This document shows, piece by piece, positions 885 to 64,000 of a stretch of 64,000 nt of DNA. The DNA is from Azolla caroliniana (lineage: Eukaryota; Plantae; Polypodiophyta): contig JBHGNT010000004.1 of assembly GCA_043228905.1 (NCBI GenBank), positions 24,056,001 through 24,120,000 of the forward strand, in the 5' to 3' direction. The notes beneath the pieces were generated by a model, which ran no database searches, had not been told where the DNA came from, and saw only the letters and a list, made by a program, of their open reading frames with translations. The translations under genes and the position numbers were made by a program. The stretch's first letter is position 1; every line of letters begins with the position of its first letter.

Positions 885-1527
885 TGTCGTGAAGAAAACC
901 GTCCACAAGCGGAATCGGTGCGCCGGAGCGTAGGAACCGGCTCTTCTTGCACGTTGTACATAAGAGAGAATGTTGTACATAGAAGATCCTAGGCAGGTAG
1001 ATTCGGTAGGTAGGGAGTTAATGGGAAACGGCTCCTTCCTTGCCTATAAAAGGAGGGAGACGAGGAGGGGCGAAGGGATCGCGGAGAGTCGAGGACGAAG
1101 TGTTGTCGGTTTGTGGGCCGAAGACCTCTCTCTCTCTCTCGCTCGCAAACTCCGTAGCTTCTTGCTGTGTAGGTTTCGGGAGGCTCGCGCTGCTCTGAGG
1201 AATGCCCAAGTGCTTCCGGCAGCACCTCCAACCTACTCTTTCCTTTCTGTGCGTTTACGAACAGGCATCGGCATCTGTTCGCCGGCCTGTTCGGTTGTAA
1301 CCGACCACGTGTTTCTTGTTGCTTGTTTTGTTAATATATATATTTACCTACATTCGTGTCTCTCTGTGTCGGTGTCCCACTCGCGTCTTTGTGTCGAAGG
1401 GCCGTGTCCCTGTGAATCTACGCTCGCACGTGGTGGGTCCCCTCCCTTCTCCTTTCTCTCTTGCTCTTCGGTACAAGACCCCCGAGGTCCCGCCTCATTC
1501 CACGCATCCGCGAGGAATACCTCGACA
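885..1527 (+). mobile_element. 3' LTR of a Gypsy element (TGTCG...CGACA)
   Basis: Preceded by PPT GGTGGGGGCGGA. Starts TGTCGTGAAG and ends CTCGACA; TATAAAA near 1044 and (CT)n. Its end interrupts the integrase ORF of the minus-strand element and is followed by ACGT. Confidence 0.85.
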
Positions 1528-4345
1528 ACGTATTTTCTAACTTCTTAAAGACTTGTGTCCAGAAGTCACTAGTAAACTTTGGATCTCGATCACTCACGAT
1601 ATCCATCGGTAACCCATAAAAACGAAACAATTCGTCCACGAATTGGTAAGCCAATTCAGGAGCTGTTACCGTGGTTTTAGTAGCAATAAATCTGGCCATT
1701 TTAGTTAGTCGATCAACGACAACCCAGATGGCATCATGACCTTTTTGGGTGCGAGGAAGGCTAACAATAAAATCCATGGATATACTTTCCCACTTATTAT
1801 TGGGAATGTCCAAGGGATGTAAAAGTCCTGCGGCTTTAAGTCGCTCGGCTTTGTTAACCTGACACTGGTGACATTTAGTCACATAGGTATGTATGTGAGG
1901 ACGCATCTTAGGCAAATAAAATTGAGTGGAGATGAGAACGAGTGTACGATGTATTCCAGGGTGCCCTGCTGAGGGTGCATCATGGCATTCAAAAAGAATC
2001 CTCTTTTTGACCTCGGGTAAATCTGGAACACAAACCTTCCCATTACGGTAGAGCAAACCGTTAGCAATGTGGAAGTATTCCTTCAAGGATGTGGTGATGT
2101 CTGTTCCAGCCTCAACTCTTGCCCAGTATTTTGCGAAATAACTGTCATCAGGATACTTTCCTCGAAGGTGATCATAAAGATCTGATGATATTTCAGTGAA
2201 GCTAAGCGTGTTAACTTCACGGATGCGACTTAGTGCATCAGTGACAGTGTTCATGGAACCTTTACGATATCGTATGGAAAAATCAAAGTCCTGGATGAGA
2301 TCAGCCCATCGTGCCTTACGACCTTTCAGGTCTTGTTGGTCACAAAAATATTTCAAGGACTCGTGGTCCGTAGTTACCACAAAGTGATTTCCATAAAGAT
2401 AATGGCGCCATGTTTTGAGCGCACGTATAACTGCAAATAATTCCTTTTCTTGAACGGTATACCGACATTGAGCAGAATCAAGTTTCGTACTCTCGAATGC
2501 TATTGGTTTACCATCTTGATACAAGACAACACCTATAGCATAATCGCTTGCATCGGTTTCAACCTCAAAAGGTTTTGAAGGATCAGGTAAAAGAAGTGAA
2601 GGAGCCTTGCAAACCATGTGCTTGAGTTCCTTAAAGGCGAGGTCTAGTGTACCATTCCACACAATAGGTTTTGTAGACTTACGCGTTTGACCTTTTAAAA
2701 TATCAGTAAACGGTGTCGTAAATTGGGAGTAATTACGAAGAGACTTTCGCAAAAACCCGACAAAACCAAGGAATGATCGAACTTCTCGAATATTCCGAAG
2801 AGTGGGCCAAAGCTTGATTTTCTCAATGCGAGAAGGATCAATTTCAACTCCTCGTTCGGTTATGAGAGGTCTAAGATAAGTAATTGATTTCTTGAAGAGA
2901 TCACATTTTGAGATCTTCGCATAAAACTGTTTGTCACGCAATGTTTGTAAAACAAAGCGGACATGTCTAGCATGTTCTTGTAATGTACGGCTATAAACTA
3001 AAATATCATCCAAGAAAATAACGACAAATTTTCCAAGTTGTTCTCGGAAAATGTCATTCATTTCTTGTTGAAAAGTAGTCGGAGCATTGGTCAAACCAAA
3101 AGGCATAACCAAAAACTCGTAATGGCCATAGCGCGTACGAAATGCCGTTTTAGGAACATCGTCCTCACTTATTCGTATTTGATGGTAGCCAATACGGAGA
3201 TCAAGTTTCGTAAAATACCGAGCTCCTTGGAGACGGTCAATTAGATCGTCAGCCCGGGGCAATGGGTACGAATTCTTGATCGTCACTTTATTTAAGCGTC
3301 GGTAATTAATACACATACGCCATGTGCCCTCTTTCTTTTTAACCAAGAGAACTGGTGCACCCCATGGAGATCTACTATAACGTATATAACCCATTCATAA
3401 ATAGTCCTTGAGTTGCTTAGATACCTCATCTTCCTCGGATCGACTTAAGCGATACGGAGGTATACTTATTGGTGCAACACCAGGTACAATATCTATACGA
3501 TGGTCTATACAATATCTAAACCAGGACATTATCAATATTGTAAACGTGAATGTCCGGATCAAGTACACAATAAAATAACGTAGAACAAGACAACTCGGAT
3601 ATTGATGAACACGAGGAAACAATCGAGAGGGATTGTTTTTTTACACATTGAATAAAATGCGTACAATCGTTCAGTACAAAAGAAATGGAATGACGAACCC
3701 AATCAATAAATAAAGAAGAGTTTTTATTATAAAACATGGGATAACCCAGTATTACATCGGTGGTACAAAGATTCATTACATGGAAGTCTACTTCCTCTAT
3801 ATAAGTATCAATAGAAATTCCTAATGAATGAATCGCCCCGTTGATGTATTGTACTCTTCCATCAGCCAAGTCCACCGTGTAGGTGTGATCACTTATGGTG
3901 GGTTGGATTCCCCATATCTGAACCAAACGATCATTCAAAAAATTGTGTGAGCTTCCCGAATCAAATAAAAATTGTACGGGATATCCATTGATATACCCGT
4001 TTGCACGTAGTAAATCATTGGGACCCAATACATAGTGAGGGAAAGAACATTGACAATTACATAAATGATGTGTATAGACCTGAAGGACATTAGGAATCTG
4101 ACCTTTATGGTCTGCAGCTTTAGCTTTGTTGTCGTGCTCTTTCCGTTGGAGCTTTCGACATTGATCTTTTGTATGACCCTTCCTTTTGCAGAATACACAA
4201 AAAGGATGTTGTCGCTTACAATCGCAATCCAGGAATTCGTTGGGTGTCTTACGTTTCCCAACAAATTGCGACTGCTTACTCCCGGGCGCTTCGTTGGGTT
4301 TGTTATGGTCCTCTTGATATGTGAATCCTCACTTGAGCGTTTGTA
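1528..4345 (-). mobile_element. Degenerate chromovirus-like Ty3/Gypsy gag-pol (zinc knuckle, protease, RT, RNase H, integrase N-part)
   Basis: CVFCKRKGHTKDQC knuckle near 4160-4205; protease FDSGSSHNF; [15 protein letters not shown]; RH TDASDY; integrase H..H..CHQC and SMDFI. Premature stop at 3395, a frameshift, and truncation by the LTR at 1527. Confidence 0.92.
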
Positions 4346-16321: not shown

Positions 16322-17606
16322 TGTCGTGAAGATTTTTGGTAATAGTGTGAAAATCCCATAAAACGTACGAAATCGAGTATGAATCACATAATACAATAAT
16401 TGTGAAGATAACATTTTAAATAAATTTAATATCTAAGTACAAAATGATGGAGGTTTCGAATGCACTTTATTACACGAGAAACGGACAACTAAATGTCAAG
16501 ATATGAGGGTATAAAGTTTGTGAAAGGAAAAGAGAAAATTGTGAGATATCCCACATAGGCACGACAAATACGGCTCTCATAATATATAAGGTAGAGCAAA
16601 AGATATTATCTTTGTGTCTATGTGTGGAGCATAAAGAGTTCAAGGTAACTTGAACTAAGAGTGGAGGTGGGCTAGCTACTCGTAAAGGGTTTTGGCCAAC
16701 CAAAACCGGACCGGCGATGGATCCGGTGATCCGGCGGCAATCCGGCATCCGACGAGGCACCGGTAACCGACGGCAACCGGCGACGGCATCCGGCGGTGGC
16801 ACCGGTATCTGGCGCCGGTGAGACGACGACATCCGGCGATGGAGTCGATGATCCGACAACACCAGTATCCCGCGGCAACCGGCGATGGCATCCGGGGTCG
16901 GCACCGGTGAGACGACGACATCTAGCGAGGCATCGGTAACCGACGACATCCGGCAGCGGCACCGGTATCCGGCGCCGGTGAGACGACGACATCCGGCGAG
17001 GCACCGGTAACCGACGGCATCCGGCGACTAGATAAATAAATATATAAATATATATACATATATACATATACAAGGAGGGCAAGTAAGGATTCGAACCTTG
17101 CACCTCCAAGTTAGGAGTCAATTGGCTTACCATTAAGCCATGCTAATTAGTTGAATTTATATTTCTATCATTGTACTTTTACATGTAAATTCTTATACAT
17201 GAGAGCTAAAATGAGTGACATGGTTATCATGCACCACATGTAATACATAAGTGCCAAATGGCAAACATGCAATTTATGCATGTCTTGTACCCTCACATGC
17301 ATCATATGCATGAGAGCATCTATAAAAGAAGGAAGGGGGAGGAGAAAAAACACGGTTTTTTTTATGAAATTAAGAAGAAGAAATTCGTTATCAAATTGAT
17401 CGTGTAACTTGTTTCTTAAATATAAAGTTAAAAGTTCAATCAATCTCTCTCAATCGTGTAATCTCAACTTCTCTCTTTCCCAATATATCTTAAGTACTTT
17501 CTCGCTAAAGCTTGCACCAAAGCTTGTACTGACTTTGAATCCTTCCGGTTCAGAACCCCGGCGGTTCCGCCTCACGATCCACGGGTAGTGACGGATCTTC
17601 ACGACA
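16322..17606 (+). repeat. 5' LTR with GC-rich short-repeat array (~16706-17028), tRNA-like module and TATA near 17321
   Basis: Matches 32151-33435 at offset 15829. Confidence 0.96.
17075..17147 (-). ncRNA. tRNA-derived Pol III promoter module (SINE-head-like) inside the LTR; second copy at 32904-32976
   Basis: Minus strand: A box TGGCTTAATGG (17140-17130), anticodon-like loop CTCCTAA, B box GGTTCGAATCC (17097-17087) at tRNA spacing; D and T arms fold but the acceptor stem does not. Confidence 0.75.
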
Positions 17607-17614
17607 TAATAAAG

Positions 17615-17632
17615 TGGTGAACCCGACGTGAA
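17615..17632 (+). promoter_or_regulatory. Primer binding site complementary to the tRNA-Trp 3' end
   Basis: TGGTGAACCCGACGTGAA is the reverse complement of the plant tRNA-Trp end TTCACGTCGGGTTCACCA; also at 24314-24331 and 26300-26317. Confidence 0.85.
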
Positions 17633-17667
17633 AGAGGCGGTAGGAAGGATCAAGTCGAGATTAATAC

Positions 17668-19872
17668 TTGGTGATGTCGTCTTCAAGCAACCAAGCGGGA
17701 GAGCTCGAAAGGATGATGCTAATCGTCGAGCAAATGATGAGATCTCAGGACAATGACGCGAGCGTGGAGAAGGTTGTCGATCGTGTCATAGAGCTCGAGG
17801 GCCAATTCGATGGAAGGAACGTTACGAAGTTCCTTGATGCATATAGAAGGGAGATGAATCAGAGGGACGTGTCCGAGGCACGTCAAATCGCAAGCTTCGA
17901 GAGAGTTGTCGCCAACAACATCCAAAGACGCATCATCGAGCTTCAAGAAGGTAAGACAACATGGTCTGAGTTCGAGAAAATGATACTAGCGGAGTTCGTG
18001 ACTGAAGACTCAACGAGGATGACTCGACATGCCCTGATGAAGTGGATAGAGAAGAAGAATAAGAAGATGAGCGTCTCGAGGGTGTACGACGAATTCGACC
18101 AGATGTTTAGTCGTCTCCCCAATACGGACCAAGTGTTGCTTGAAGAGGACAAGACTTTGTACTTCTTGAAGGCCGTGGACATAAAGGATAGACGGGAGTT
18201 GGGGACTCTTCTCGAAGATGATACCCAAGCAAATGGGCTCGTAGCGGACTGGATCGCAATGAAGCGGGCATGCAATAGGCTCGACAAGCGTCGCCAATGG
18301 GTTGATGACACCGACTTGACGGGACCGACTACCACGGAGAAAGCAAGACTACCGAAAGTAGCTGAGCCGCCAAGACAAAGTAACGTGGAATAAAAGAAGA
18401 TTGACGACGACATCATTGAAGAGCTAGCGAAGAAGTTCGAGAAGGTCACGCTAGCCAACATGAATCGTCGGGGCCCTAAAGGAAAAGAACCCTTTAGATG
18501 CGTGTGGTGCGATAGCATGGACCACATGAGAAGGGATTGTGCGAGCCTTCGAGAGGCGATTCGACAAAATATCGTATACATAGAGGACAACATGATTTGC
18601 TCAAGCGAGACTAGAAGACCCCTACGGGTGAATTTCGGAAGAGGAGGAATGAAGAAATCTATGGAGGATGCCGATGCGACTCATGTGGATGTGATGCACT
18701 ATGTTGCGTCGGCCGGAATAAGAGTCGGGAAAGACAAGACTGAAGTTGCTAGAGCGGGAGCAAAGTTTTGGACTTCCGTTCTCGAATATGAGAAGAAGGG
18801 AAAAGTCACATCGAACGAGGTAGAGCTTGCGGACCGAAGCGTGCAAAGCATAACCGGGTGGTCGGATCCGGTGGACGACAACACCATACTCGCAGAGGTG
18901 ATGTGCGACAACCACGAGGTGTTCGTCGAAGAAAAGAGAAAGAGAATAGAAGAGCAAGGCCCATAAAAAAGACATGAAACAAGGAACGCAAAAAAGAAGG
19001 ACGATGCAGAGACGAGTCGACCTTTACAAACAAAGGAACGAGAATCAAGCTGAAAAGGGGAGTCGGGCATACGAGTTGAAGAAACGGTTCGGCCCGTGAA
19101 GGTTGGTGTCGAAGACCCCACTTGGAGGACAAGGACTATACCTACCTATAAGCTAAGGTCGGACATAGAGCAGACGACGGACCTAAAGAAGATTCTCAAA
19201 GAACGAGTTCTTGATAGCCACGTAACTTTGTCCTTGAGGGAATTGCTTGGCATTATGAAGAAGGAGTTCCATGACACGATCGCGGACCTTGTAAAGAGAA
19301 AGAGACAACAATCGGACGAGGAAGAAGAGAAGCCGCAAAAAGCAAAAACGAATGCCATAACGATGGCAAGAGATGAAATTGATGAAGATATGGTGGACAG
19401 CCACTACACTCGACCTCATTGGGCACGACCGACAACGGAGACGCCGGTGAAGATCGGGGAGAAGAAAGAGACCGTGGTAGCCTTGATCGACCACGGCTCG
19501 GAGATCAACCTCATGTCAACCGACTTCTACAAAAAAGGAAGATGGCCAATCAATACAAACCACGGATGGAAGATTCGCGCGGCAACAAAGTCTACGGAGG
19601 ACTTGTACGGAGCTTGTCCCAATATCAAAGTCACGATCGAGGATGTGGAGATGGATCAACACTTCTTCGTACAAGAATCGGCGTCGCATCCTGTCATCCT
19701 AGGGCAACCTTATATCACATCATCTCGGATGGAGACCAAAGTGTTCGATAATGGAGCAGCCTTCGCACAAATAAAGAGTCTTGACAACCAAAGATCGGTC
19801 CAATTCCTAATGGTGCGAGCCAATCATGAAAGGAATCGAGATAGTCTCGGAGGCGAATCCTCAGATTTTTAG
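17668..19872 (+). pseudogene. Gypsy gag (CCHC knuckle CVWCDSMDHMRRDC) plus aspartic protease (LIDHGSEIN), with premature stops
   Basis: ORFs 17668-18393, 18460-18966 and 19096-19872 lie in one frame separated by stops. Confidence 0.85.
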
Positions 19873-21415
19873 AGCGGACTATTGAAGCATGGGGCACAAA
19901 TAGTCTGAGCAATCACAAGACCCCACAAGAAAGAAGAGTGTGTGGATTGCAAGGAGAAGCAACATGTGTCACACCTAGTGGCGCATGTAAACTAGTACTA
20001 CCGGACAAGAAGCACAAGCGCCGGATACAAGAATTCGAGAAGATGCTGAAAGAAGAGAACATAATAGAAGAAGGAGAGTTCGTGACTCATATTATGGAAG
20101 AAGCCTAATTTAACGACACCATCGGCGAAATCGAGGACGTCGTGGACTTGAGCTATCTTCACAACCAACGCGTGATTTCGGTTAACTCCGTCAACATGTA
20201 CGCTATCATCGATGAATACCGTCATGGCATCTCGATGAAGGAAGCTGACATCAACATGAAATATAAAACGGTGGATAAGAAGATCAATCCAGTTGCGGTT
20301 CCGCTACCGGAAGATAGTTGGCAAAAGATGAAGGAAGTCGCTAACGATCCAAGCTTAAGAGATCCGAAGAAGATAGGTCATGTCTTCACCAAAGAGACGA
20401 AGGGGAAGCTATGAGTTGGAAAGGAGGATTTCCTTCTTCCTGAAGAGGAGCGAATGTTTCGCGATATGCTTGAGAGACATGGGAAGGCTTTCGCATTCTT
20501 CCCACGAGAAATCGGATGCGCTGACCCAAAGGTTATAGAGCAGATGGTGATCTTCACGGTGCCTCATGTGCCTTGGAATTTGAAACCGAAACCGGTTCCG
20601 AGAGCACACCTTCCGAAGCTGATCGAGCTCTTAAAGGAGAAGGTGAGTATGGGAATTCTAGAACCGTCGAATGCTCCTTATTCCAATAGGTGGTTCACGG
20701 TGCCGAAGAAGAATGGATCATTGCGATTCATCCAAGATCTTCAACCCGTCAACAAGGTGACAATTCGAAATGCCGGAATCGGTCCGAGCGTGGACGAATT
20801 TGCCGAAGCGTTTGCGGGCCGGTCTATCTACTCCATTGGCGATCTCTACTCCGGATATGACCAATTCCAATTGGCGATTGACAGTCGGGACATTACAACC
20901 ATGAGGACTCCGATCGGGCTTGTGCGGATGTGTACCTTACCCCAAGGCGCAACGAACTCGGTGGTGTCATGAACACATGTGGCTCATATGGTGAATGCCA
21001 TGAATAAAGTCTTGAAGGATTGCATTCTGGACATCACGATGCCATTCTTGGATGATATTCCGATAAAAGGATGTTCGGATGAGGAGAAAGATGAATCGAA
21101 AGATAAGGAAGGTTGTAGAAAGTTCGTTGTGGATCATATGAAAGATTGCGAGAAGGTGCTTCAAAGGCTCGAAGATGCAAATTTGACATTTTCGGGAGAA
21201 AAATCCGCATTCGGGCAACCGGAGATCTTGGTGGTAGGTCACTTGTGTGGAGCATACGGCCGGAAGCCCTCGCCATCCAAAGTGAACGCAATCCAAGACA
21301 TGAAAGAAGAATGCGAAAACCAAACGGAGGTTCGAAGGTTCCTTGGAGCGTGCACGTTTTATCATATATGGATTCCTCACTACGCTCATGTCGCCGAACC
21401 ATTATATGGACTACT
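19870..21415 (+). pseudogene. Gypsy pol, reverse transcriptase part
   Basis: GDLYSGYDQF, LPQGATNS and FLDDIPI; premature stops and an 18-bp insertion near 20965; cut at YGLL by the TIR element. Confidence 0.92.
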
Positions 21416-23703
21416 AACACCGGGTCATTTGAAACAGGTAATATTTCGCATTCTCTTTTTCATATCTTAGTGAGATGTTAAAAAATGCCTTATTTAAGCA
21501 GATTTTCAACAAGGCACGACGCATGTGTATGTGGTTTATGAAAACATAGCGAAAAAAAGAACTAACTAATATCACGTCAACAAAATCATCCGACGTATAT
21601 TCTATCTACCATGTTTTTGTCCAAATCTTAGACAGGGGTGTATTTGTCAACACAAGTATAATAGTAACACGGGTCCTTGTGCATATTCTAAAAAGCATGC
21701 CCCATTGAATAAGTGACTTCTTCTAATTATGTGTGTATATTTAAATATAATACATCTTAAAGCAAATTGTGAACCTTGCAATTAAGAGATACTACTATGT
21801 CAAGAGAAAATTTCCATTGACACATGATACATGACATTGTCAATGTATAAATAAACTAGTCTACAATAACATCCCAATCATACGAGTAAATGATAGAGTA
21901 TAAACTTATCTCCGATATACCCCAAATGATAAAGGAGAGTTTAGATAACATGTACACATACAAGTATACTTAATTTCTAAGTTCAATGATTGTTACACGA
22001 AAATGATAAGTAAGCTCAACTTATATATTACGTCAAAATTTAACAATTCATATTGTTCAAAATTTACAATAAGCCATAACCATTCAATCGAATAATAAGT
22101 CTGGTAAAGCCGTCTACTCAGGATTAGCTCTTTTATTAGGATTGTCCTCATTGGCTTCGTCAGTACGCTAAGTTGAATTGTTAGTATGTTCAGACTCTGA
22201 AACGTCTTCTAATTCAACAAGTTGCCCTGCGTCTTCATCTATAGTTCCACAAGTTTTCTAAAAGTCACATGGAACATCTAAGTTTTATTGATATGCTTTG
22301 CCCCAACTTCTTGGTCTTGATCAGGACAACCCCAGATACCTTGGATCCTCATTTTGATGACATTAACTTGCTCAAGGTCCTTCTCTAATGCAACAGAGTT
22401 CCTGATAATCTTTAAGGCATATGTTTTAGTAGTACATGACAGTAGAATGAAATTGCACAGGTAACATCAAACTGAAGAATAGAATATAACGTTAATCTAA
22501 ATTGATGTAAGTTTTATATTATATACCTGTGTCAGAAAACTAATCTAAAACCCATTGAAAATTTGAAACAATAAAATTTGAAAAAATAAAAAATCTTGGA
22601 TTTTTAATTGGAATCCAATGCGATGCACTAGATTTTAGTTGAAAATCCAAGTTTTTTTATTTTTGTAATTTTTAAAATTTTTTCCATTAAAAAATAAAAA
22701 ATGGATTTTCAGCTAAAATACTATGCACTACATTATATTTTAGTATATATAGCTAGAATCTAATGCAATGCGTTGGATTAGAGTCAAAAATCCTTTTTTC
22801 TTTTTTCTTTTTCCAATGTTATTTATTTATTTATTTTCCATATAAAAAAATAATAAACGGCTTTTCAACTAAAATCCGATACACTACATCAGATCGTAGT
22901 CTATACAGCTAGACATTGATGCATTGCATCAAATTTTAGCTGGCAATCCTCTTTCTTTTCAATTGTTTTTCATTTTTTCAAAAAATAAATAAAAATATAT
23001 TAAAAAAGTGGATTTCCAACTGAAATCTAATGCACTACATCAAATTTCAATTAAAAATCCAAATTTCTTTTAGGTTTTTCATAAAACAATGAGATAATAA
23101 AAAAATATTACATTTTCAACAAAATCTGAACCATTGAGTCGGATTTCAATTGCAAATTAATGTTTTATGAAAAAACATAAGAAAAATATTGGACTTTCAA
23201 CGGAAATCCGATGCACTGCATCGGATTTCTGTTGAAACTCAATGATTTTGAACGGAAATCCGATGCAATGCATCGGATTTCCATTGAAAATCGTGTTGAA
23301 AATGATCTGTTTTCAACGGGAATCCGATGCACTGCATCGGATTCCCGTTGAAAACACATCATTTTAAATGGAGAAAATCACAATTTGTTTATTTTTAACA
23401 CTATTTTAGAGAAAAATATAAACAAATAAGAAAATTTGTAAACAAACAAGAAAAAGTGAACTTTCAATAGAAATCCGATGCAGTGCATCGGATTTCCGTT
23501 GTCGTAGTGTAGGTTGCACACTATGTGGAAATTATATTTTTGTCCCTCCGGATAGAGAATGGAGTGCTCGGTGAGAACCGGAAGAAAACGGCATACCGGC
23601 AAGGAGGAAAAACGGCATACCGGCAAGGAGGAAAAACGGCATACCGGCAAGGAAGAGCCGGATAAAGAGACATAAATGTAAAAACAAAGGAAATACTCAC
23701 TAC

Positions 23704-23775
23704 TGCACAGGGCGTGATTCGAACTCTACACCTCCACGTTGACAAACCCCAACCTTACCATTACATTAACTTATC
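23704..23775 (-). ncRNA. Degenerate tRNA-like module in LTR-A
   Basis: Minus strand TAATGTAATGGTAAG...TGGAGGTGTAGAGTTCGAATCA, A-box-like and B-box-like at tRNA spacing. Confidence 0.6.
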
Positions 23776-24356
23776 TTAAGTGCTTTAAATATAGATTTAA
23801 TACGTATAAGACCTTTATTTATGCATACCTTTATTAAAAGGTAAATCGTGTATTTTTTAATATATGAAAAAGACGAGACACTAAAAATAACTCATGCACA
23901 TCTAGCGTGCATGAGCCCTATACTTAGGAAATAAAAAAGCATCACATGCACATTTAGTGGACATGAACACTTTTTGTAAAAAAAAAAAAAAAAAGCATGA
24001 AGCCATGCTTAGCTCTTCCTTCCTTATATAAGGAGGAGAGAAATATGTAAAGGGTTGTTGATTATTTGGATTAAGTATTAATCAATACAAAAAAATATTC
24101 GTGGGATTCACGATTTATACATCTACTTCTCTCTTAACACCCTAAGTACCAATTAATATAGTATACTCGTGTGATTCACGAGTTTCTTATCTTTCTCTTT
24201 GCTATTTACTCATAATTAATCTCTATCTTACGAGCTTCTTCCTCCTAGTCCAAGACCTCTGTGGTTCCCACCCGACTCACGCAACGATCCGGAGCCGAAA
24301 GGCACGACACATTTGGTGAACCCGACGTGAAGAGCAGCAGGGGAGGACGAAGATGG

Positions 24357-25871
24357 ATGGCGAATATCTCATGGAGGCAAGTCCAAAAGTTCTTCTTGGA
24401 AAACGGTTTAATATGGAGGACGCCGAAAAGACCGGATGGGATACCACTTCGAGTAGTCGGGACGAGAGAGCAACGAAACCGGATAATGTCCGAGTTCCAC
24501 GAATCCGATTGGGCTGGACATCGAGGAACATGGGCAACTTTTGTGAAAATCAAGCAAAGATATTGGTGGAAGAACATGTATAAAGATGTCGCGGAGTTCA
24601 CAGAAAGCTGCGAGAAATGTCAAGTCTACTCCGGGGTCCGACACCGAGATGAGCTGCATCCGACATTCTCACCGACAATCAACTTCAAGTGGATGGTCGA
24701 CATTGTAGCTATGCCGACCGGGATTGGACAAAAGAAATACTTGGTGTTAGCTCGAGAAGATCTCACAAACCAAGTTGAAGGTCGAGCGCTTCGGAGGAAA
24801 ACGTGTGCCGCGGTGTGCCAATTTCTTTTGGAAGAAGTGTTTTGTAGGTACGGCTGCGTAGGACAAGTGATTGCGGACCGGGGAGAACTCGACTCGGACA
24901 AAGCTAGGGGATTCTTCACCAAACATGGAGTTCGGTTAACGTTGACAACGGCCTACAATCCGGAGGCCAACGGGAAGATCGAACGAGGACATAGTCCGAT
25001 CGTGAAAGCACTTGCGAAGGCATGCGACGGAAGGGTGAAGGATTGGCCACAAATGCTTCCGTATGCACTATGGGCGGATCGGACGACGCATAGCTCCGTG
25101 ACCGGTTACATGCCGGCAGAACTCATGACCGGACAAGCACCGGTAATGCCAACGGAAACCGCAATCGCGACATGGACAATACTACCGTGGAAGGAAGAGA
25201 TGAGCCGGGAAGAACTACTAGCGGTCCGAATACGACAACTGGAGGGAAGACCGAAAGATGTAGCGGAAGCGTCACGCCGACAACAAGAAGCACGGTTCCG
25301 GAACAAAAGCCGGTTCGACACAAAGCACCGACTACGACCGAGGAGGATTGAAGAAGGAGATTGGGTGATCGTCTATGATAGTAGCTTGGACCATCAACAT
25401 ACAACGATGCGGAAATTCGCGAAAAGGTGGTTCGGGCCGTACGAGGTTCGGAAGGTCTTCGACAACGGGACGTACCGACTGTCCGAGTTGGATGGAACAA
25501 TACTACGAGTGCCTATAGCCGGGAAGCGGGTGAAGATTTTCAAGAAGCGGACCGACGACAAACCTTATGTGATCCAAGTCGAGGCCGACAACGAGGAGCA
25601 ATCGGACGAAGACCACAATGATGCGGGAAGCGAAGAAAGTGGATTACAACTCATAGTCGACATAAGGGGAGAATCGGAGGAAGCTTTGGATGAAGACGGA
25701 TACGAAGAATCAAGAACTTCGGCACATACCGGAGGATGTGCGGGTTTGGAGGGGGCGAGAAATGATGTCGCGAAGATTCGCGCGTGCGTGTGCTACTCGA
25801 GCATCATTTTTCTCAATTGTCGGAGCGGGAACAAAGATTGGTGGGGGTCGATAAGGTCCTTATGTTCGTGA
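24357..25871 (+). CDS. Uninterrupted Gypsy integrase-only ORF directly downstream of the PBS
   Basis: MANISWRQ joined to VQKFFLENG; HHCC (H..GH..CEKC), D(WMVD)-D(IADRG)-E(ERGH), GPY motif and acidic tail; no gag, PR or RT between PBS and integrase. Confidence 0.85.
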   Translation: MANISWRQVQKFFLENGLIWRTPKRPDGIPLRVVGTREQRNRIMSEFHESDWAGHRGTWATFVKIKQRYWWKNMYKDVAEFTESCEKCQVYSGVRHRDELHPTFSPTINFKWMVDIVAMPTGIGQKKYLVLAREDLTNQVEGRALRRKTCAAVCQFLLEEVFCRYGCVGQVIADRGELDSDKARGFFTKHGVRLTLTTAYNPEANGKIERGHSPIVKALAKACDGRVKDWPQMLPYALWADRTTHSSVTGYMPAELMTGQAPVMPTETAIATWTILPWKEEMSREELLAVRIRQLEGRPKDVAEASRRQQEARFRNKSRFDTKHRLRPRRIEEGDWVIVYDSSLDHQHTTMRKFAKRWFGPYEVRKVFDNGTYRLSELDGTILRVPIAGKRVKIFKKRTDDKPYVIQVEADNEEQSDEDHNDAGSEESGLQLIVDIRGESEEALDEDGYEESRTSAHTGGCAGLEGARNDVAKIRACVCYSSIIFLNCRSGNKDWWGSIRSLCS

Positions 25872-26099
25872 AGTCAATCGATCGAATGGAAAGGATGGCG
25901 ATCGGCCTCAAACACGAAGAAGGATGAAGCTGCGGTTGAGTTCGATGGAGAGGTTGCATGCGGGAAGGAGGAGTGACCAGGAGTCCAATCGAAGGACACG
26001 CGCGGTGGACGAAGGAAGAGCGGTCGTATCGACGACATCGTTCGGTAGATCTACTACAACCGATCGAGGAAGAAAGGATATCCCCACACCTAATCTAGA

Positions 26100-26476
26100 G
26101 ACTTCGGCACCGTTGAAATAGCTCATTCGTTCGACTACTTTGTCGACGGCTTGTTGGGCTTCATTTCTTCTTTTCTCTTCTCTCAGAAACTCCATCATCC
26201 TTCTTGCCATTGCCTCCATGAGATATTCGCCATCCATCTTCGTCCTCCCCTGCTGCTCTTCACGTCGGGTTCACCAAATGATGTCGCGAAGACATCATTT
26301 GGTGAACCCGACGTGAAGAGCAGCAGGGGAGGACGAAGATGGATGGCGAATATCTCATGGAGGCAATGGCAAGAAGGATGATGGAGTTTCTGAGAGAAGA
26401 GAAAAGAAGAAATGAAGCCCAACAAGCCGTCGACAAAGTAGTCGAACGAATGAGCTATTTCAACGGTGCCGAAGTC
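26100..26476. repeat. 186-bp inverted repeat with 5-nt loop, made of PBS plus gag start
   Basis: 26100-26285 is the reverse complement of 26291-26476; no mismatch seen. Confidence 0.93.
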
Positions 26477-26878
26477 CAAAGTTTCCTAAAAGTCTACAAT
26501 GCGGAGATGGATTCAAGAGGTGTGGACAAAGCTATGAGGCTAGAGTACTTTTGTCGGGTGGTGTCTCAACCGATCTTCAAAGATGTAGAAGAGCTTCTAG
26601 AAGCTCATGATTCGTGGGCGACTTTCGAGAAGGCTCTATTGGAGGAATATGGCTATGAGAGACTGAAGGGACGAGATCGACGCAACTTCGACCAATGGGT
26701 GACATCAGCGAAGACCCACCAAGGTGCGACACAAGCATTCGTAGACTTCGAGCATCATTTTTCTCAATTGTCGGAGCGGGAACAAAGATTGGTGGGGGTC
26801 GATAAGGTCCTTATGTTCGTGAAGTCAATCGATCGAATGGAAAGGATGGCGATCGGCCTCAAACACGAAGAAGGATGA
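26339..26878 (+). pseudogene. Truncated Gypsy gag N-terminus
   Basis: VDKVVERMSYFNGAEVQSFLKVYNAEM aligns with VEKVVDRVIELEGQFDGRNVTKFLDAYRREM of the 17668 gag. Confidence 0.8.
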
Positions 26879-27770
26879 AGCTGCGGTTGAGTTCGATGGA
26901 GAGGTTGCATGCGGGAAGGAGGAGTGACCAGGAGTCCAATCGAAGGACACGCGCGGTGGACGAAGGAAGAGCGGTCGTATCGACGACATCGTTCGGTAGA
27001 TCTACTACAACCGATCGAGGAAGAAAGGATATCCCCACACCTAATCTAGAGACTTCGGCGGTTGTGCACGTGCGCCAACGTGAGACCGGAGAGACGGAAT
27101 GTGTGGACAAAAAAGAGGACGACCGGAAGGGCGATGAAGAAGACAAGGTAAATGTGCATGAGCGAAGGGATTCCTTCACACCGGTTGCGGAGACTTCGGC
27201 AGTCAAGACCGTGTGTCGGCATAAGACCGAAGATAAAGGAGGTGGCGAAGAGGAGACAATATGGCTCACGGCGAGCATACACGGAGGGAAGGATATGGCC
27301 GACGAGCAGGCCAAGGATGAAGCTGCGGTTGAGTTCGATGGAGAGGTTGCATGCGGGAAGGAAGGAAGAGTCGAGAACCGGTTGAACCGGAAGACGATCC
27401 GGCCGGGATTCCGACCCGAACGAAGGAAGATCCACATGGGAGCCAATCGACCGGGGCCGACCCGGCCGAAACCTGATTCGGCGAAAATCGATCGGACGAT
27501 TCCGATCCAAAAGGGGGCCAACCCAGCCAAAATCAATCGGTCGAGCCCGACCCGGGGAAATGTGAATGCAGACGAAGGCCAACCAAGCCAAGAAGCGATC
27601 GGTGGAGACCGATCCGGACAAGGGCAAACCCGGCCTAATCGGAGATCGACACGAATGATCTACAATACCCAGTTGAAGACGGTGAGTGAGATGAATAAAC
27701 CAAGGATGTGCAACATTGCACATGCACTTAGCAAATAAACCTAGCCTAGTGGCACTTGAGTTCATACAGA

Positions 27771-27840
27771 GGGGTGCAAGCAAGGATTGAACCTTGCACC
27801 TCTAAGATACAAGACAATTGCCTTACCACTAGGACAACTA
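27771..27840 (-). ncRNA. tRNA-like module in LTR-B, homologous to the one at 17075-17147
   Basis: Minus strand TGTCCTAGTGGTAAGGCAATTGTCTTGTATCTTAGAGGTGCAAGGTTCAATCCTTGCTTGC. Confidence 0.68.
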
Positions 27841-30114
27841 TCATATAGTGTAGATTCTATGTATTTCCTTTTCATATGCAAATTATAGACGAAACAACCA
27901 TAGAAAACCATGTGCACAAAACCATGGTTTTAAACCCATGGTTTGTGCATGACATAAGCAAAACCGTGTGCACAAAACCATGGTTTTAGCCCATGGTTTT
28001 GTGCATGTCACGAGCATGGAAAGACCTATAAAAGCCTCTAGTTGGGCTTGTGTAGGGGGGGCTCAATATGTGATATCACCAACACCATTATCATCAATAT
28101 AATATTTGTCTTTATCTTCTTCATTATTTTTCTACTTCTCAAGTGTACAATCTTTCTTCTTCTCGAGTAAACCAATTTCATCTAATCTTACATTGATCGT
28201 CATCTAGCTTCGATAATTCCGCGAACGTCCTCCCCAGTCCAAGACCCCGGTGGTCGCTCGAGTAGCACACGCACGCGCGAATCTTCGCGACATCGTTGAA
28301 AATCCATTTTTTTCAATTCCTATATATTTATTTATGATAAAAACAAAAACAATTCAAAACAAATACAAAAACAAATTCAAAATATCTGAAAAATTGGAAA
28401 CAAATAAGACAAAATGGATTTTCAATAGAAATCCGATGTAGTGCATCGGATTTCTGTTGGAAACCCATTTTTTGCAATTTTTATTTATTTATTTATTGGA
28501 AAAAATGAAAAAAATTTTAAAAAATACAAAAAAATATTTTAAAATATGAAAATTTGGTAACAAATAGCAAAAAGTGGACTTTCAATAGAAATCCAATGCA
28601 ATGCATTGGATTTCCTTTGAAAATTCATTTTTTCAATTTCTATATAGTTATTTATGAGAAAATAGACAAACAAAATACCAAAAAAATTCTAAAAACTATG
28701 AAAATTTGGAAAAAAAGAAGAAAAAGTGGATTTTCTACGGAAATCTATTTTTTCAATATTTATTTATTTATTATAGAAAAAATTCCAAAAAATTCAAAAA
28801 AAAAAGCAAATTTGGAAAAAAAATACGTAAAAGTGGACTTTCAACCAAAATCCGATGCAGTGCATTGGATTTCCGTTGAAAATCCATTTTTTCGATTTTT
28901 ATTTACTTTTTTATGGGAAAAATAAAAACAAATTCAAAAACAATTCAAAAAATAAGAAAATTTTCAAAAAAATAAGAGAAATTGGATTTACAATTGAATC
29001 CGATGCACAGAATTGGATTTCCATTGAAATCTAAATTTTCAATTTTTATTTATTTATTTACGAGTAAAATAAAAAATGTTTATTTATTTATTCATGGGAA
29101 AATGTTTTAGTTTTTCAATTTGTATTTATTTATGTATTTTCGGGAAATCCATGCAATGTATCATATTTTAGTCTATGTAGCTAGAATTCAATGCAATGCA
29201 TTAAAATGCAAGAGTATTTTTTTGATGGAAAGTTTTAAAAGAATTTCAAGACTTACAGGAATCTGATGCATTATATCCAATTCTAGATGTATAGAGTAAA
29301 ATTTGACATGTTGCGTCAAATCTAGATGGAATGAATCGGATTTCTGTACGACATCAAAGGCTTACTATGAGAATCTAAGAAAAATGGAAAACATCTTTAA
29401 GACATTTTTTAGATTCTAATGATTTTGGTAGAAAGCTTCTGTCACATAATCTAATCTTGTAAATGGAAAGTACATAATGAAATATCATAACCAAAAAGTG
29501 AGGAGGAAAGATGCATCAAGCACATCTACACTTACATTGGATAATGTTTATATATTAGTGTATGACTTATCTTTGACCAAAACAAGTTATCTGTGACAGA
29601 CCACAATGAAGATACTAAAAGAGGATCTGGAATGTGGCTTCAGACACAACACAAAGACAAACAAGAAGCATGACTCATAAACTCGATGAGGTTGGATTGC
29701 AATTGGATCAACACAATGCATTAGTTGCCATTGATGATGAGGATGAGACCTCATAAACTCGTACTAGTTCATCAAATGGGTATGAAGATGATGACATAAA
29801 CTTGAAAAATGATTGTCCTGATACGTTAACTATAAATATTGTATTGCACATCAAGATTTGGATTCAGAATTTCTATAAATATTGGGGTTAGTCATTTTGG
29901 ACATTCATTTGTAAGTTTGGCATGTCCATTATTTAGGCATTTTTTTGAACCCCTAAATTTCCGTACATGTTAAAAATCAATATATTTTTGGGTCATTTTT
30001 AAAATTCCTTCACGCATGCGGCACCCCTTTTTGTGAATCACCCTAATTTGTGTCATTTTTTGATGGATAGTTCTCAAAATGCGACATATTACTTGTTTCA
30101 AATGTCCCGGTGTT

Positions 30115-32150: not shown

Positions 32151-33435
32151 TGTCGTGAAGATTTTCGGCAATAGTGTGAAAATCCCATAAAACGTACGAA
32201 ATCGAGTATGAATCACATAATACAATAATTGTGAAGATAACATTTTAAATAAATTTAATATCGAAGTACAAAATGATGGAGGTTTCGAATGCACTTTATT
32301 ACACGAGAAACGGACAACTAAATGTCAAGATATGAGGGTATAAAGTTTGTGAAAGGAAAAGAGAAAATTGTGAGATATCCCACATAGGCACGACAAATAC
32401 GGCTCTCATAATATATAAGGTAGAGCAAAAGATATTATCTTTGTGTCTATGTGTGGAGCATAAAGAGTTCAAGGTAACTTGAACTAAGAGTGGAGGTGGG
32501 CTAGCTACTCGTAAAGGGTTTTGGCCAACCAAAACCGGACCGGCGATGGATCCGGTGATCCGGCGGCAATCCGGCATCCGACGAGGCACCGGTAACCAAC
32601 GGCAACCGGCGACGGCATCCGGCGGTGGCACCGGTATCTGGCGCCGGTGAGACGACGGCATCCGACGATGGAGTCGATGATCCGACAACACCAGTATCCC
32701 GCGGCAACCGGCGATGGCATCCGGGGTCGGCACCGGTGAGACGACGACATCTAGCGAGGCATCGGTAACCGACGACATCCGGCGGCGGCACCGGTATCCG
32801 GCGCCGGTGAGACGACGACATCCGGCGAGGCACCGGTAACCGACGGCATCCGGCGACTAGATAAATAAATATATAAATATATATACATATATACATATAC
32901 AAGGAGGGCAAGTAAGGATTCGAACCTTGCACCTCCAAGTTAGGAGTCAATTGGCTTACCATTAAGCCATGCTAATTAGTTGAATTTATATTTCTATCAT
33001 TGTACTTTTACATGTAAATTCTTATACATGAGAGCTAAAATGAGTGACATGGTTATCATGCACCACATGTAATACATAAGTGCCAAATGGCAAACATGCA
33101 ATTTATGCATGTCTTGTACCCTCACATGCATCATATGCATGAGAGCATCTATAAAAGAAGGAAGGGGGAGGAGAAAAAACACGGTTTTTTTTATGAAATT
33201 AAGAAGAAGAAATTCGTTATCAAATTGATCGTGTAACTTGTTTCTTAAATATAAAGTTAAAAGTTCAATCAATCTCTCTCAATCGTGTAATCTCAACTTC
33301 TCTCTTTCCCAATATATCTTAAGTACTTTCTCGCTAAAGCTTGCACCAAAGCTTGTACCGACTTTGAATCCTTCCGGTCCAGAACCCCGGCGGTTCTGCC
33401 TCACGATCCGCGCGTAGTGACGAATCTTCACGACA
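32151..33435 (+). repeat. 3' LTR
   Basis: Copy of 16322-17606, preceded by a PPT. Confidence 0.96.
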
Positions 33436-62514: not shown

Positions 62515-64000
62515 TGTCGTGAAGATTTTCAGCAATGGTGTGAAAATCGCATAAAACATACGAAATCGAGTATGAATCATATAAAACAATAATAGTGAAA
62601 ATACTATTTTAAATAAGTTTAATATCTCAGTACAAAAAGATGGAGGTCTTCAAGAGCTTTCGAATGCACTTTACTACATAAGAAACGAACATCTAAGTCT
62701 CAAGTTATGTGGGTAGGAAGTTTGCAAAGGAAAAAAGAAAGATAAATTGTGAGATATCCCACATAGACAGGACAAATAAGGATCTCACCATATATAAGGC
62801 AGAGCAAAAGCTTTCGTTGTGTGTATGTGAGGAGCACAAATGTTCCGGAGACTTGGGTAGTTGTAGAAAGCCAACGTGAGACCCAAGAGATGGACGATGG
62901 TGATACCCACGTAGGACACTCCATCTAGAGACTTGGGCAGTTGTGTTGAGAACCAACGTGGGACCCAAGAGATAGATGGTAGGAAACGAATGTAAAATTG
63001 AAAGGTAAAAAATTAGAATGTAAAATTTGGGTGTCTATGTGAGGAGCACACATGTTTCGGAGACTTGGGCAGTTGCAGAAAGCCAACGTGAGACCCAGGA
63101 GATGGACGATGGCGATACCCATGTAGGACACTCCATCTTGAGACTTGGTTAGTTGCATTGAGAACTAACGTGGGACCCAAGAGATAGATGGTAAGTGAGA
63201 TGTATGAAAGGGGAGCGATGTATTAATCAAGAAATTAAAAGTAAGAAATTCATTATCAATTGGAGACTTGGTTAGTTGCGTTGAGAACTAACGTGGGACC
63301 CAAGAGATAGATGGTAAGTGTGATGTATGAAAGGGGAGCGATGTATTAATCAAGAAATTAAAAGTAAGAAATTCATTATCAATTGGAGACTTGGTTAGTT
63401 GCGTTGAGAACTAACGTGGGACCCAAGAGATAGATGGTAAGTGTGATGTATGAAAGGGGAGCGATGTATTAATCAAGAAATTAAAAGTAAGAAATTCATT
63501 ATCAATTGGAGACTTGGTTAGTTGCGTTGAGAACTAACGTGGGACCCAAGAGATAGATGGTAAGTGTGATGTATGAAAGGGGAGCGATGTATTAATCGAG
63601 AAATTAAAAGTAAGAAATTCATTATCAATTGGAGACTTGGTTAGTTGCGTTGAGAACTAACGTGGGACCCAAGAGATAGATGGTAAGTGTGATGTATGAA
63701 AGGGGAGCGATGTATTAATCGAGAAATTAAAAGTAAGAAATTCATTATCAATTGGAGACTTGGTTAGTTGCGTTGAGAACTAACGTGGGACCCAAAAGAT
63801 AGATGGTAAGTGTGATGTATGAAAGGGGAGCAATGTATTAATCAAGAAATTAAAAGTAAGAAATTTGTTATCCAATTGATGTATCAATTTTGTTCTTCAA
63901 ATGTTCAATCTTAATATCTCTCTCAATCTAAAGTCAAGCGTTCTATCTTATCTCAATCTCTCTCTTTCAATCTATCTTAATTCATTTCTCACTAAAGCTT
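62515..64000 (+). mobile_element. LTR related to the 16322 LTR (runs off the window end) with a different central region
   Basis: Starts TGTCGTGAAGATTTTC; first ~320 bp and last ~100 bp align to 16322-16630 and ~17420-17513. Confidence 0.85.
63140..63877 (+). repeat. Tandem array of 6 x 123 bp inside the LTR
   Basis: GAGACTTGGTTAGTTGC recurs at 63140, 63263, 63386, 63509, 63632 and 63755. Confidence 0.95.

Follow-up and report, generated by a model that had tools for sequence, protein, structure and literature searches.

A backward tRNA-type A/B-box unit upstream of the TATA box in LTRs of coding, Phygy-like Gypsy elements

Several LTR families of coding Gypsy retrotransposons carry, upstream of their TATA box, a tRNA-like unit with the A and B boxes of a Pol III promoter, placed on the minus strand so that it points away from the element. 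Judged from sequence, this arrangement is real and non-random, and the unit is likely to be selected. The evidence supports the unit being a standing part of these LTR families and not a fresh SINE insertion. Four units of one type, T1, lie in the window (the whole stretch of DNA analysed, 64,000 nucleotides):

17074..17147, minus strand: T1 tRNA-like unit in the 5' LTR, A box 17130-17140, 32-nt spacer, B box 17087-17097
17074-17107: 3' hairpin around the B box of this unit
32903..32976, minus strand: T1 unit in the 3' LTR, identical to the 5' LTR copy, A box 32959-32969, B box 32916-32926
23703..23775, minus strand: diverged T1 unit in LTR-A, A box 23758-23768, B box 23715-23725
27770..27843, minus strand: T1 unit in LTR-B, A box 27826-27836, B box 27783-27793

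The first-pass annotation had placed units at 17075-17147, 32904-32976, 23704-23775 and 27771-27840, and all four were confirmed there on the minus strand. In the 1285-bp LTR (LTR1) the A box is TGGCTTAATGG and the B box GGTTCGAATCC, with no mismatch to the type-2 Pol III A/B box consensus that was used for scoring; the unit of LTR-A has three box mismatches and that of LTR-B two. The 32-nt distance from A to B box is that of an ordinary tRNA gene and is identical in all four. Each unit lies upstream of the TATA box, with 180, 190 or 256 nt between it and the A box, in agreement with the 180-260 bp and the outward direction given earlier. A strict scan of the window recovered three of the four units, missing that of LTR-A, against 0.35 matches per shuffle (40 shuffles, maximum 2). 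A profile seeded on the window units and extended with metagenome copies found the four units in 64 kb and no other strong match, the next having an E value of 0.06. The LTR-B region holds in addition a sense A-box-like motif (27734-27801, also present in the metagenome locus L076) 31-32 nt from a near-palindromic B box, so that this unit could be readable in both directions.

The units sit in a nested set of elements, whose parts are as follows:

16322..17606, plus strand: 5' LTR of a Phygy-type Gypsy element, termini TGTCGTGAAG...CTTCACGACA, target site duplication (TSD) CCGT before it
16700..17026, plus strand: GC-rich short-repeat block of the 1285-bp LTR family, highly variable
17141..17327, plus strand: predicted Pol II promoter block with five CATGCA/TGCATG (RY-type) motifs and the TATA box CTATAAAA at 17320-17327
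17615..17631, plus strand: primer-binding site (PBS) TGGTGAACCCGACGTGA, tRNA-Trp type
17665..21415, plus strand: gag, DUF4100 region and RT, stop-broken, cut at 21415 by a nested DNA-transposon-like insertion
23500..24309, plus strand: LTR-A, 810 bp, TATA box 24024-24031, left end of a chimeric nested element, Trp PBS at 24314
27684..28292, plus strand: LTR-B, right end of the LTR-A/LTR-B chimera, TATA box 28026-28033, 5'-truncated by 33 nt relative to L076
30115..32078, plus strand: RNase H and integrase of the same element as the gag at 17665, stop-broken
32151..33435, plus strand: 3' LTR, 99.0% identical to the 5' LTR, TSD CCGT after it
885..1528, plus strand: 3' LTR of another element with the TGTCGTGAAG terminus and without the unit, an internal negative control
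62515..64000, plus strand: relative of the 1285-bp LTR with the TGTCGTGAAG terminus, in which GC block, unit and RY-TATA block are all absent

We take the CATGCA/TGCATG motifs to be RY elements of B3 factors. The two 1285-bp LTRs (TGTCG...CGACA) differ at 13 positions, none of them inside the unit. At 62515-64000 the place of the unit and promoter block is taken by sequence in which a 123-bp tandem array has incorporated some of the LTR sequence from farther downstream. A single rearranged chimera has LTR-A at one end and LTR-B at the other; it is nested in the DNA-transposon-like insertion at 21416-30114, which splits the Phygy pol region, is rich in palindromic repeats and has terminal inverted repeats of about 33 nt and the 4-bp TSD TACT. 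The interval 25765-27100 holds a 186-bp perfect inverted repeat, with a pair of primer sites placed back to back at its centre, and a 312-bp segment present in two exact copies (25797 and 26748); these reflect either rearrangement by template switching or an error of assembly. A further Gypsy pol, with protease, RT, RNase H and integrase, on the minus strand at 1418-4328 enters the 885-1528 LTR from the opposite strand.

In a Pfam scan of 25 ORFs of at least 150 aa the domain order of the host element is gag, DUF4100, RT, RNase H and integrase, with the RT-RH-INT order of Gypsy and no chromodomain match, and there is neither an extra ORF nor an archaeal RNase H; the named relatives of the integrase are from Riccia, Calypogeia and Ceratopteris. 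The host is probably a seed-free plant, perhaps most likely a moss. The earlier description of a Trp-primed lineage is borne out by the tRNA-Trp primer sites at 17615 and 24314, the former being near-identical to a tRNA-Trp PBS in the available supplement of PMC10886601. Both the CCGT/CCGT duplication of the 1285-bp pair and the CCGT/TCGT flanks of the chimera fit a 4-bp NCGN rule. Phygy elements, as tabulated in the accessible part of Neumann et al. 2019 (PMC6317226), have a tRNA-Trp PBS in 81% of cases and a 4-bp NCGN TSD. Because of the Trp primer site and the NCGN duplication, the host elements appear to fit the Phygy lineage of Ty3/gypsy (non-chromovirus), which they also resemble in having no extra ORF and roughly in length, the host element being about 7.1 kb without the nested insertion against 7.7-10.0 kb in the Phygy table. 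They differ from it in the unit itself, the available Phygy description mentioning no tRNA-like LTR module (both PMC6317226).

How far the unit has spread was followed in metagenome contigs, using a search pattern (LTR end plus primer site) that is blind to the unit. At least 122 loci were retrieved, 42 of them with 300-nt flanks only; 15 of the 122 failed the primer-site or U5 filter and 107 were kept, most of them from one accession series and thus not independent samples. With the A/B consensus fixed in advance and up to three mismatches allowed, 66.7 kb of LTR-side DNA (the 107 loci and four window LTRs) gave at least 12 matches, three of them the window's own and nine from outside it, compared with a shuffled mean of 0.17 and no match in 83.6 kb of internal DNA. 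Among the matches listed, 10 of 12 are antisense, all with the 32-nt spacer; the remaining two have the sense orientation and lie in the LTR's 3' part. The unit of L042 was added by the profile search. In 19 of 31 complete LTRs in the loci listed, the LTR is preceded by NCGN and in the rest by a PPT, both tags being part of the selection rule.

When one probably non-plant locus (L034) is excluded and LTR-B is merged with L076, 5 of the 23 families that have a complete LTR bear antisense units, among the matches listed; three of the five include window LTRs, and two (L007 and L062/L065) are new. Contigs carrying three organism labels cover the unit jointly with its neighbouring DNA in the direction of the TATA box. 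Single copies can decay, L042 having GGTTTGAATCC and L071 lacking most of the unit. Besides the 18 families without a unit among the matches listed, two further window LTRs have none. As 18 of 23 families and these two LTRs are without it, the unit is not needed for Phygy replication.

Sense A/B-box-like units were seen in the 3' part of the LTR in L065 (343 nt before the LTR end), L128 (208 nt) and L044/L033/L104; that of L128 resembles type T1 (67% to L007), and those of L044 are two copies with a longer spacer. The last 500 nt of the LTRs of L054 and L072, both unit-free, hold many AAACCCTAAT repeats, which presumably correspond to plant telomere or telo-box motifs. A viral collection contained no integrase relatives, no unit and no tRNA-Trp-like gene, its six primer-site matches lying in unrelated DNA without a tRNA. 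Two pattern matches in prokaryote genomes were unsupported by the profile and are taken as chance.

The unit has the features of neither a functional tRNA gene nor a fresh SINE insertion. A cloverleaf with acceptor stem is not kept (48% of cells paired overall, 27% in the acceptor stem), the anticodon position drifts among CCT, CTT, TTC, TGT and GTC, and neither ARAGORN at default settings nor the Rfam tRNA model called any unit, ARAGORN at lowered thresholds producing hundreds of noise calls; together these speak against a functional tRNA gene. Flanking direct repeats of 8 nt or more and a tail are absent at all five units tested, which speaks against a fresh SINE insertion at each of the five, and the earlier statement that SINE tail, TSD and acceptor stem are lacking stands. 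Tail-less and without body or TSD, at a fixed LTR position and with no free copies in the DNA searched, the LTR unit differs from tRNA-derived SINEs (SINE2), with which it shares a tRNA-type head with A and B boxes. That search covered 204 kb of loci and the 64-kb window, about 21 kb of it beyond complete LTR starts, and found T1-type units confined to LTRs, degenerate tRNA-like copies in the L026 flank aside. These are three spaced copies in host flank outside the LTR (L026:2250-3042), which to us resemble initiator-Met tRNA. Of the proposal that the unit is an inherited LTR component, the part that holds is that it stands in certain LTR families, without tail or TSD, in a fixed place and joined to the promoter region; that it belongs to the whole lineage does not hold, with 5 of 23 families bearing it among the matches listed.

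An origin from the tRNA-Trp primer was considered, the units being antisense as the PBS is. Counted by hand, the unit of LTR-A agrees with the 3' end derived from the PBS at 8 of 12 non-universal places (post hoc binomial 0.003). The other units show no PBS match, and CCT stands at the anticodon place in three diverged units, both of which speak against such an origin.

Comparison between families gives indications of selection. Identity between LTR1 and LTR-B is 81% in the unit and 42% and 38% in the flanks, the latter being shuffle level, which fits the unit standing out from its surroundings and the earlier remark that the LTR types are otherwise hard to align. The gag linked to LTR1 and that linked to the LTR-B family, a link checked via L076, are 28% identical. 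The gag tree has many half-filled rows and L007, L076, L062 and L065 are absent from it, so that it shows only that the LTR1 gag is far from the LTR-B-linked gag. What LTR1 and L076 have in common is confined to the 69-nt unit; L007 shares with LTR1 this unit and the first 56 nt of the LTR, and neither has the promoter block of LTR1. With L065 and L062, conversely, LTR1 shares a 183-nt RY-TATA block (77% to L065) and not the unit; these two carry, at the site and in the orientation of T1, an unrelated A/B unit, T2, which is doubled and whose spacer is 38% identical to that of T1, again shuffle level. This crossed pattern of sharing suggests that unit and promoter shuffle separately and yet that their pairing recurs. 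The unit thus looks to have been exchanged between families, and its 81% identity between shuffle-level flanks, together with the unrelated doubled unit at the same place, points to selection on the boxes. Three or more RY-type (CATGCA-type) motifs occur in all five unit-bearing families, and two or more in 3 of 18 others, in a post hoc comparison of related sequences. A GC-rich short-repeat block, which had been said to face each unit, is not a general neighbour: the complete LTRs of L076, L007, L062 and L065 have none, and the GC-rich DNA adjoining the LTR-B unit lies outside the LTR, homology to the complete relative L076 beginning at 27684.

In contigs from three DNA runs aligned over 17070-17215, variants at a frequency of at least 8% are found at none of 11 B-box positions and at one of 11 A-box positions (a consensus R), although the left end of this alignment may under-call variants; they are found at 11 of 18 positions of the central spacer and 12 of 17 positions upstream. 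The boxes vary less than the whole 32-nt spacer (p=0.017), but not less than the 58 nt adjoining the unit toward the TATA box, where 3 of 58 positions are variable and the DNA is as invariant as the boxes.

We place about half of our confidence in the reading that the unit is a predicted docking site for TFIIIC at the upstream edge of the TATA promoter, which would help that promoter to stay open or shielded. TFIIIC binds A and B boxes and sets TFIIIB on AT-rich upstream DNA (PMC13578239, available sections). The unit may have been captured from a tRNA gene or the head of a tRNA-type SINE, perhaps Arg-CCT, then copied into both LTRs through normal reverse transcription and exchanged among families via recombination in U3. 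Host TFIIIC would bind the boxes, TFIIIB is predicted to be positioned on the AT-rich stretch that separates the unit from the RY-TATA block, and the bound factors are predicted to maintain a border, poor in nucleosomes or low in methylation, at the Pol II promoter. Facing away from the element as it does, the unit cannot be the source of the genomic RNA, and because the first run of four Ts (T4) lies from 5 to 381 nt after the B box across units, and from 13 to 381 nt within one family, there is no common transcript length. With the anticodon drifting and the T4 position variable, a common Pol III product is thus not expected from these sequences. Titles cited in PMC13578239 describe TFIIIC sites as barriers in yeast; for plants, our literature search found no report of such a barrier. 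Boundaries formed by B2 SINEs in mouse lowered the expression of their neighbours (PMC8136502, available sections), so an effect of the unit could have either sign. A 10-bp 3' hairpin is kept in T1, with 89% of cells paired and two double-sided changes, a weak signal that 55 of 500 shuffles reach; since a pure DNA site needs no hairpin, its retention counts against docking and leaves room for a role of the RNA. More tentative is the wider proposition, possible but not one that we would lean on, that coding plant retrotransposons captured tRNA promoters more than once, as portable TFIIIC barriers before an RY-TATA promoter, swapped them as cassettes between families and so gained a cis escape from silencing.

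If the RNA is what counts, the unit would be a working Pol III gene whose antisense transcript matters as a short structured RNA or as an siRNA decoy. We consider this doubtful, although the LTR1 family has perfect A and B boxes with AT-rich upstream DNA and CAA at about -6, the conserved T1 hairpin includes G-U pairs on the minus strand besides its two double-sided changes, and in L065 a T run follows 5 nt after the B box. A precedent exists in the Pol III cassettes of foamy-virus U3 (PMC6950176, in part). The scatter of the first T4, even within one family, speaks against it, as do the weak covariation of the hairpin and the second unit type, T2, which has neither the spacer sequence of T1 nor a long hairpin.

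It is unlikely, in our judgement, that the units are neutral remnants of one or two old SINE or tRNA insertions, hitchhiking in high-copy LTRs and spread by LTR recombination. The 18 of 23 families without a unit among the matches listed and the loss or decay of single copies would suit such an origin, as would the remark that in Repbase "not a few LTRs" hold tRNA-like pieces (Kojima 2024, PMC10886601, available text). It accounts poorly for the exact 32-nt spacing in 10 of 10 antisense matches listed amid unalignable flanks, for boxes that vary less than the spacer, and for an unrelated second unit at the same site and in the same orientation before the same promoter; the absence of tail and TSD and the confinement of T1-type units to LTRs in the DNA searched, the L026 flank copies aside, also oppose it. 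That the unit serves as a landing pad attracting Pol III-targeting elements is highly improbable. Targeting of Pol III start sites by Ty3 is established (PMC6673722, in part), but none of 11 unit-bearing LTR copies (four in the window, seven in the loci) has an insertion between A box and TATA box, and one there would break the element's own promoter.

Cassandra TRIMs had been named earlier; a closer precedent is found in Helenus TRIMs (PMC10886601), and another in the foamy-virus U3 cassettes (PMC6950176), as far as the accessible sections of both sources go. Cassandra and Ajax TRIMs likewise have a captured, sharply bounded Pol III internal promoter in LTRs that otherwise diverge, but theirs is a 5S type-1 promoter in a non-coding host, and that of Cassandra drives the element RNA (10.1101/2023.07.14.548913, PMC10946416, PMC10886601, available parts). 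Helenus TRIMs (TRIMp3) carry in both LTRs tRNA-derived sequence that is conserved around boxes A and B, is not a working tRNA, is patchily distributed and probably has several origins (PMC10886601, available text). They are non-coding and 311-1263 bp long, and their Pol III promoter has been proposed as a substitute for that of Pol II; in the three Helenus LTRs compared, including the only plant family (Selaginella, 5-bp TSD), the unit is in sense (same source, in part). The Phygy units differ in being antisense, in having gag-pol hosts and in the retention of the TATA promoter. Their LTRs alone measure 608-1285 bp and flank gag-pol, unlike a short non-coding TRIM (less than about 1.3 kb in total), and with 10 of 12 matches listed antisense they depart from a Pol III promoter that transcribes the element.

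According to the available part of PMC10886601, autonomous partners are not expected to share such LTR sequence. Kojima 2024 retained TRIMs only (same article, available text) and nevertheless notes tRNA-like LTR pieces, so the unit may sit unremarked in Repbase; the word Physcomitrella appears in neither the text nor the supplement of that article, as far as these are available. The foamy-virus cassettes, too, are Pol III units of a coding retroelement; they occupy its U3 in one to five copies and precede the Pol II start (PMC6950176, available sections). Foamy viruses are animal retroviruses, however, and their cassettes are miRNA precursors, dumbbells of about 120 nt with promoter and terminator, for which transcription was shown in two viruses (PMC6950176, in part); the Phygy unit is tRNA-shaped and lacks a fixed terminator. 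In a literature search of mostly non-subscription sources, no description was found of a tRNA-like LTR module in Phygy or another coding plant Gypsy, and the accessible text of a Physcomitrium TE expression paper (PMC7466625) mentions neither tRNA, SINE nor Phygy.

Earlier descriptions of Pol III promoters in plant LTRs concern short elements without coding capacity, in which they are considered to take the place of the Pol II promoter. The present ones face backward and belong to coding elements that retain Pol II, which calls for another use. Such units could inflate the counts of tRNA pseudogenes and SINEs in genomes of this kind. Ready-made controls exist in the families that lack the unit beside those that bear it, and in the occurrence of two unit types before the same promoter. 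If the units are barriers, these elements would offer a natural high-copy test of chromatin insulation by TFIIIC sites in plants, and a cis route by which retrotransposons escape silencing.
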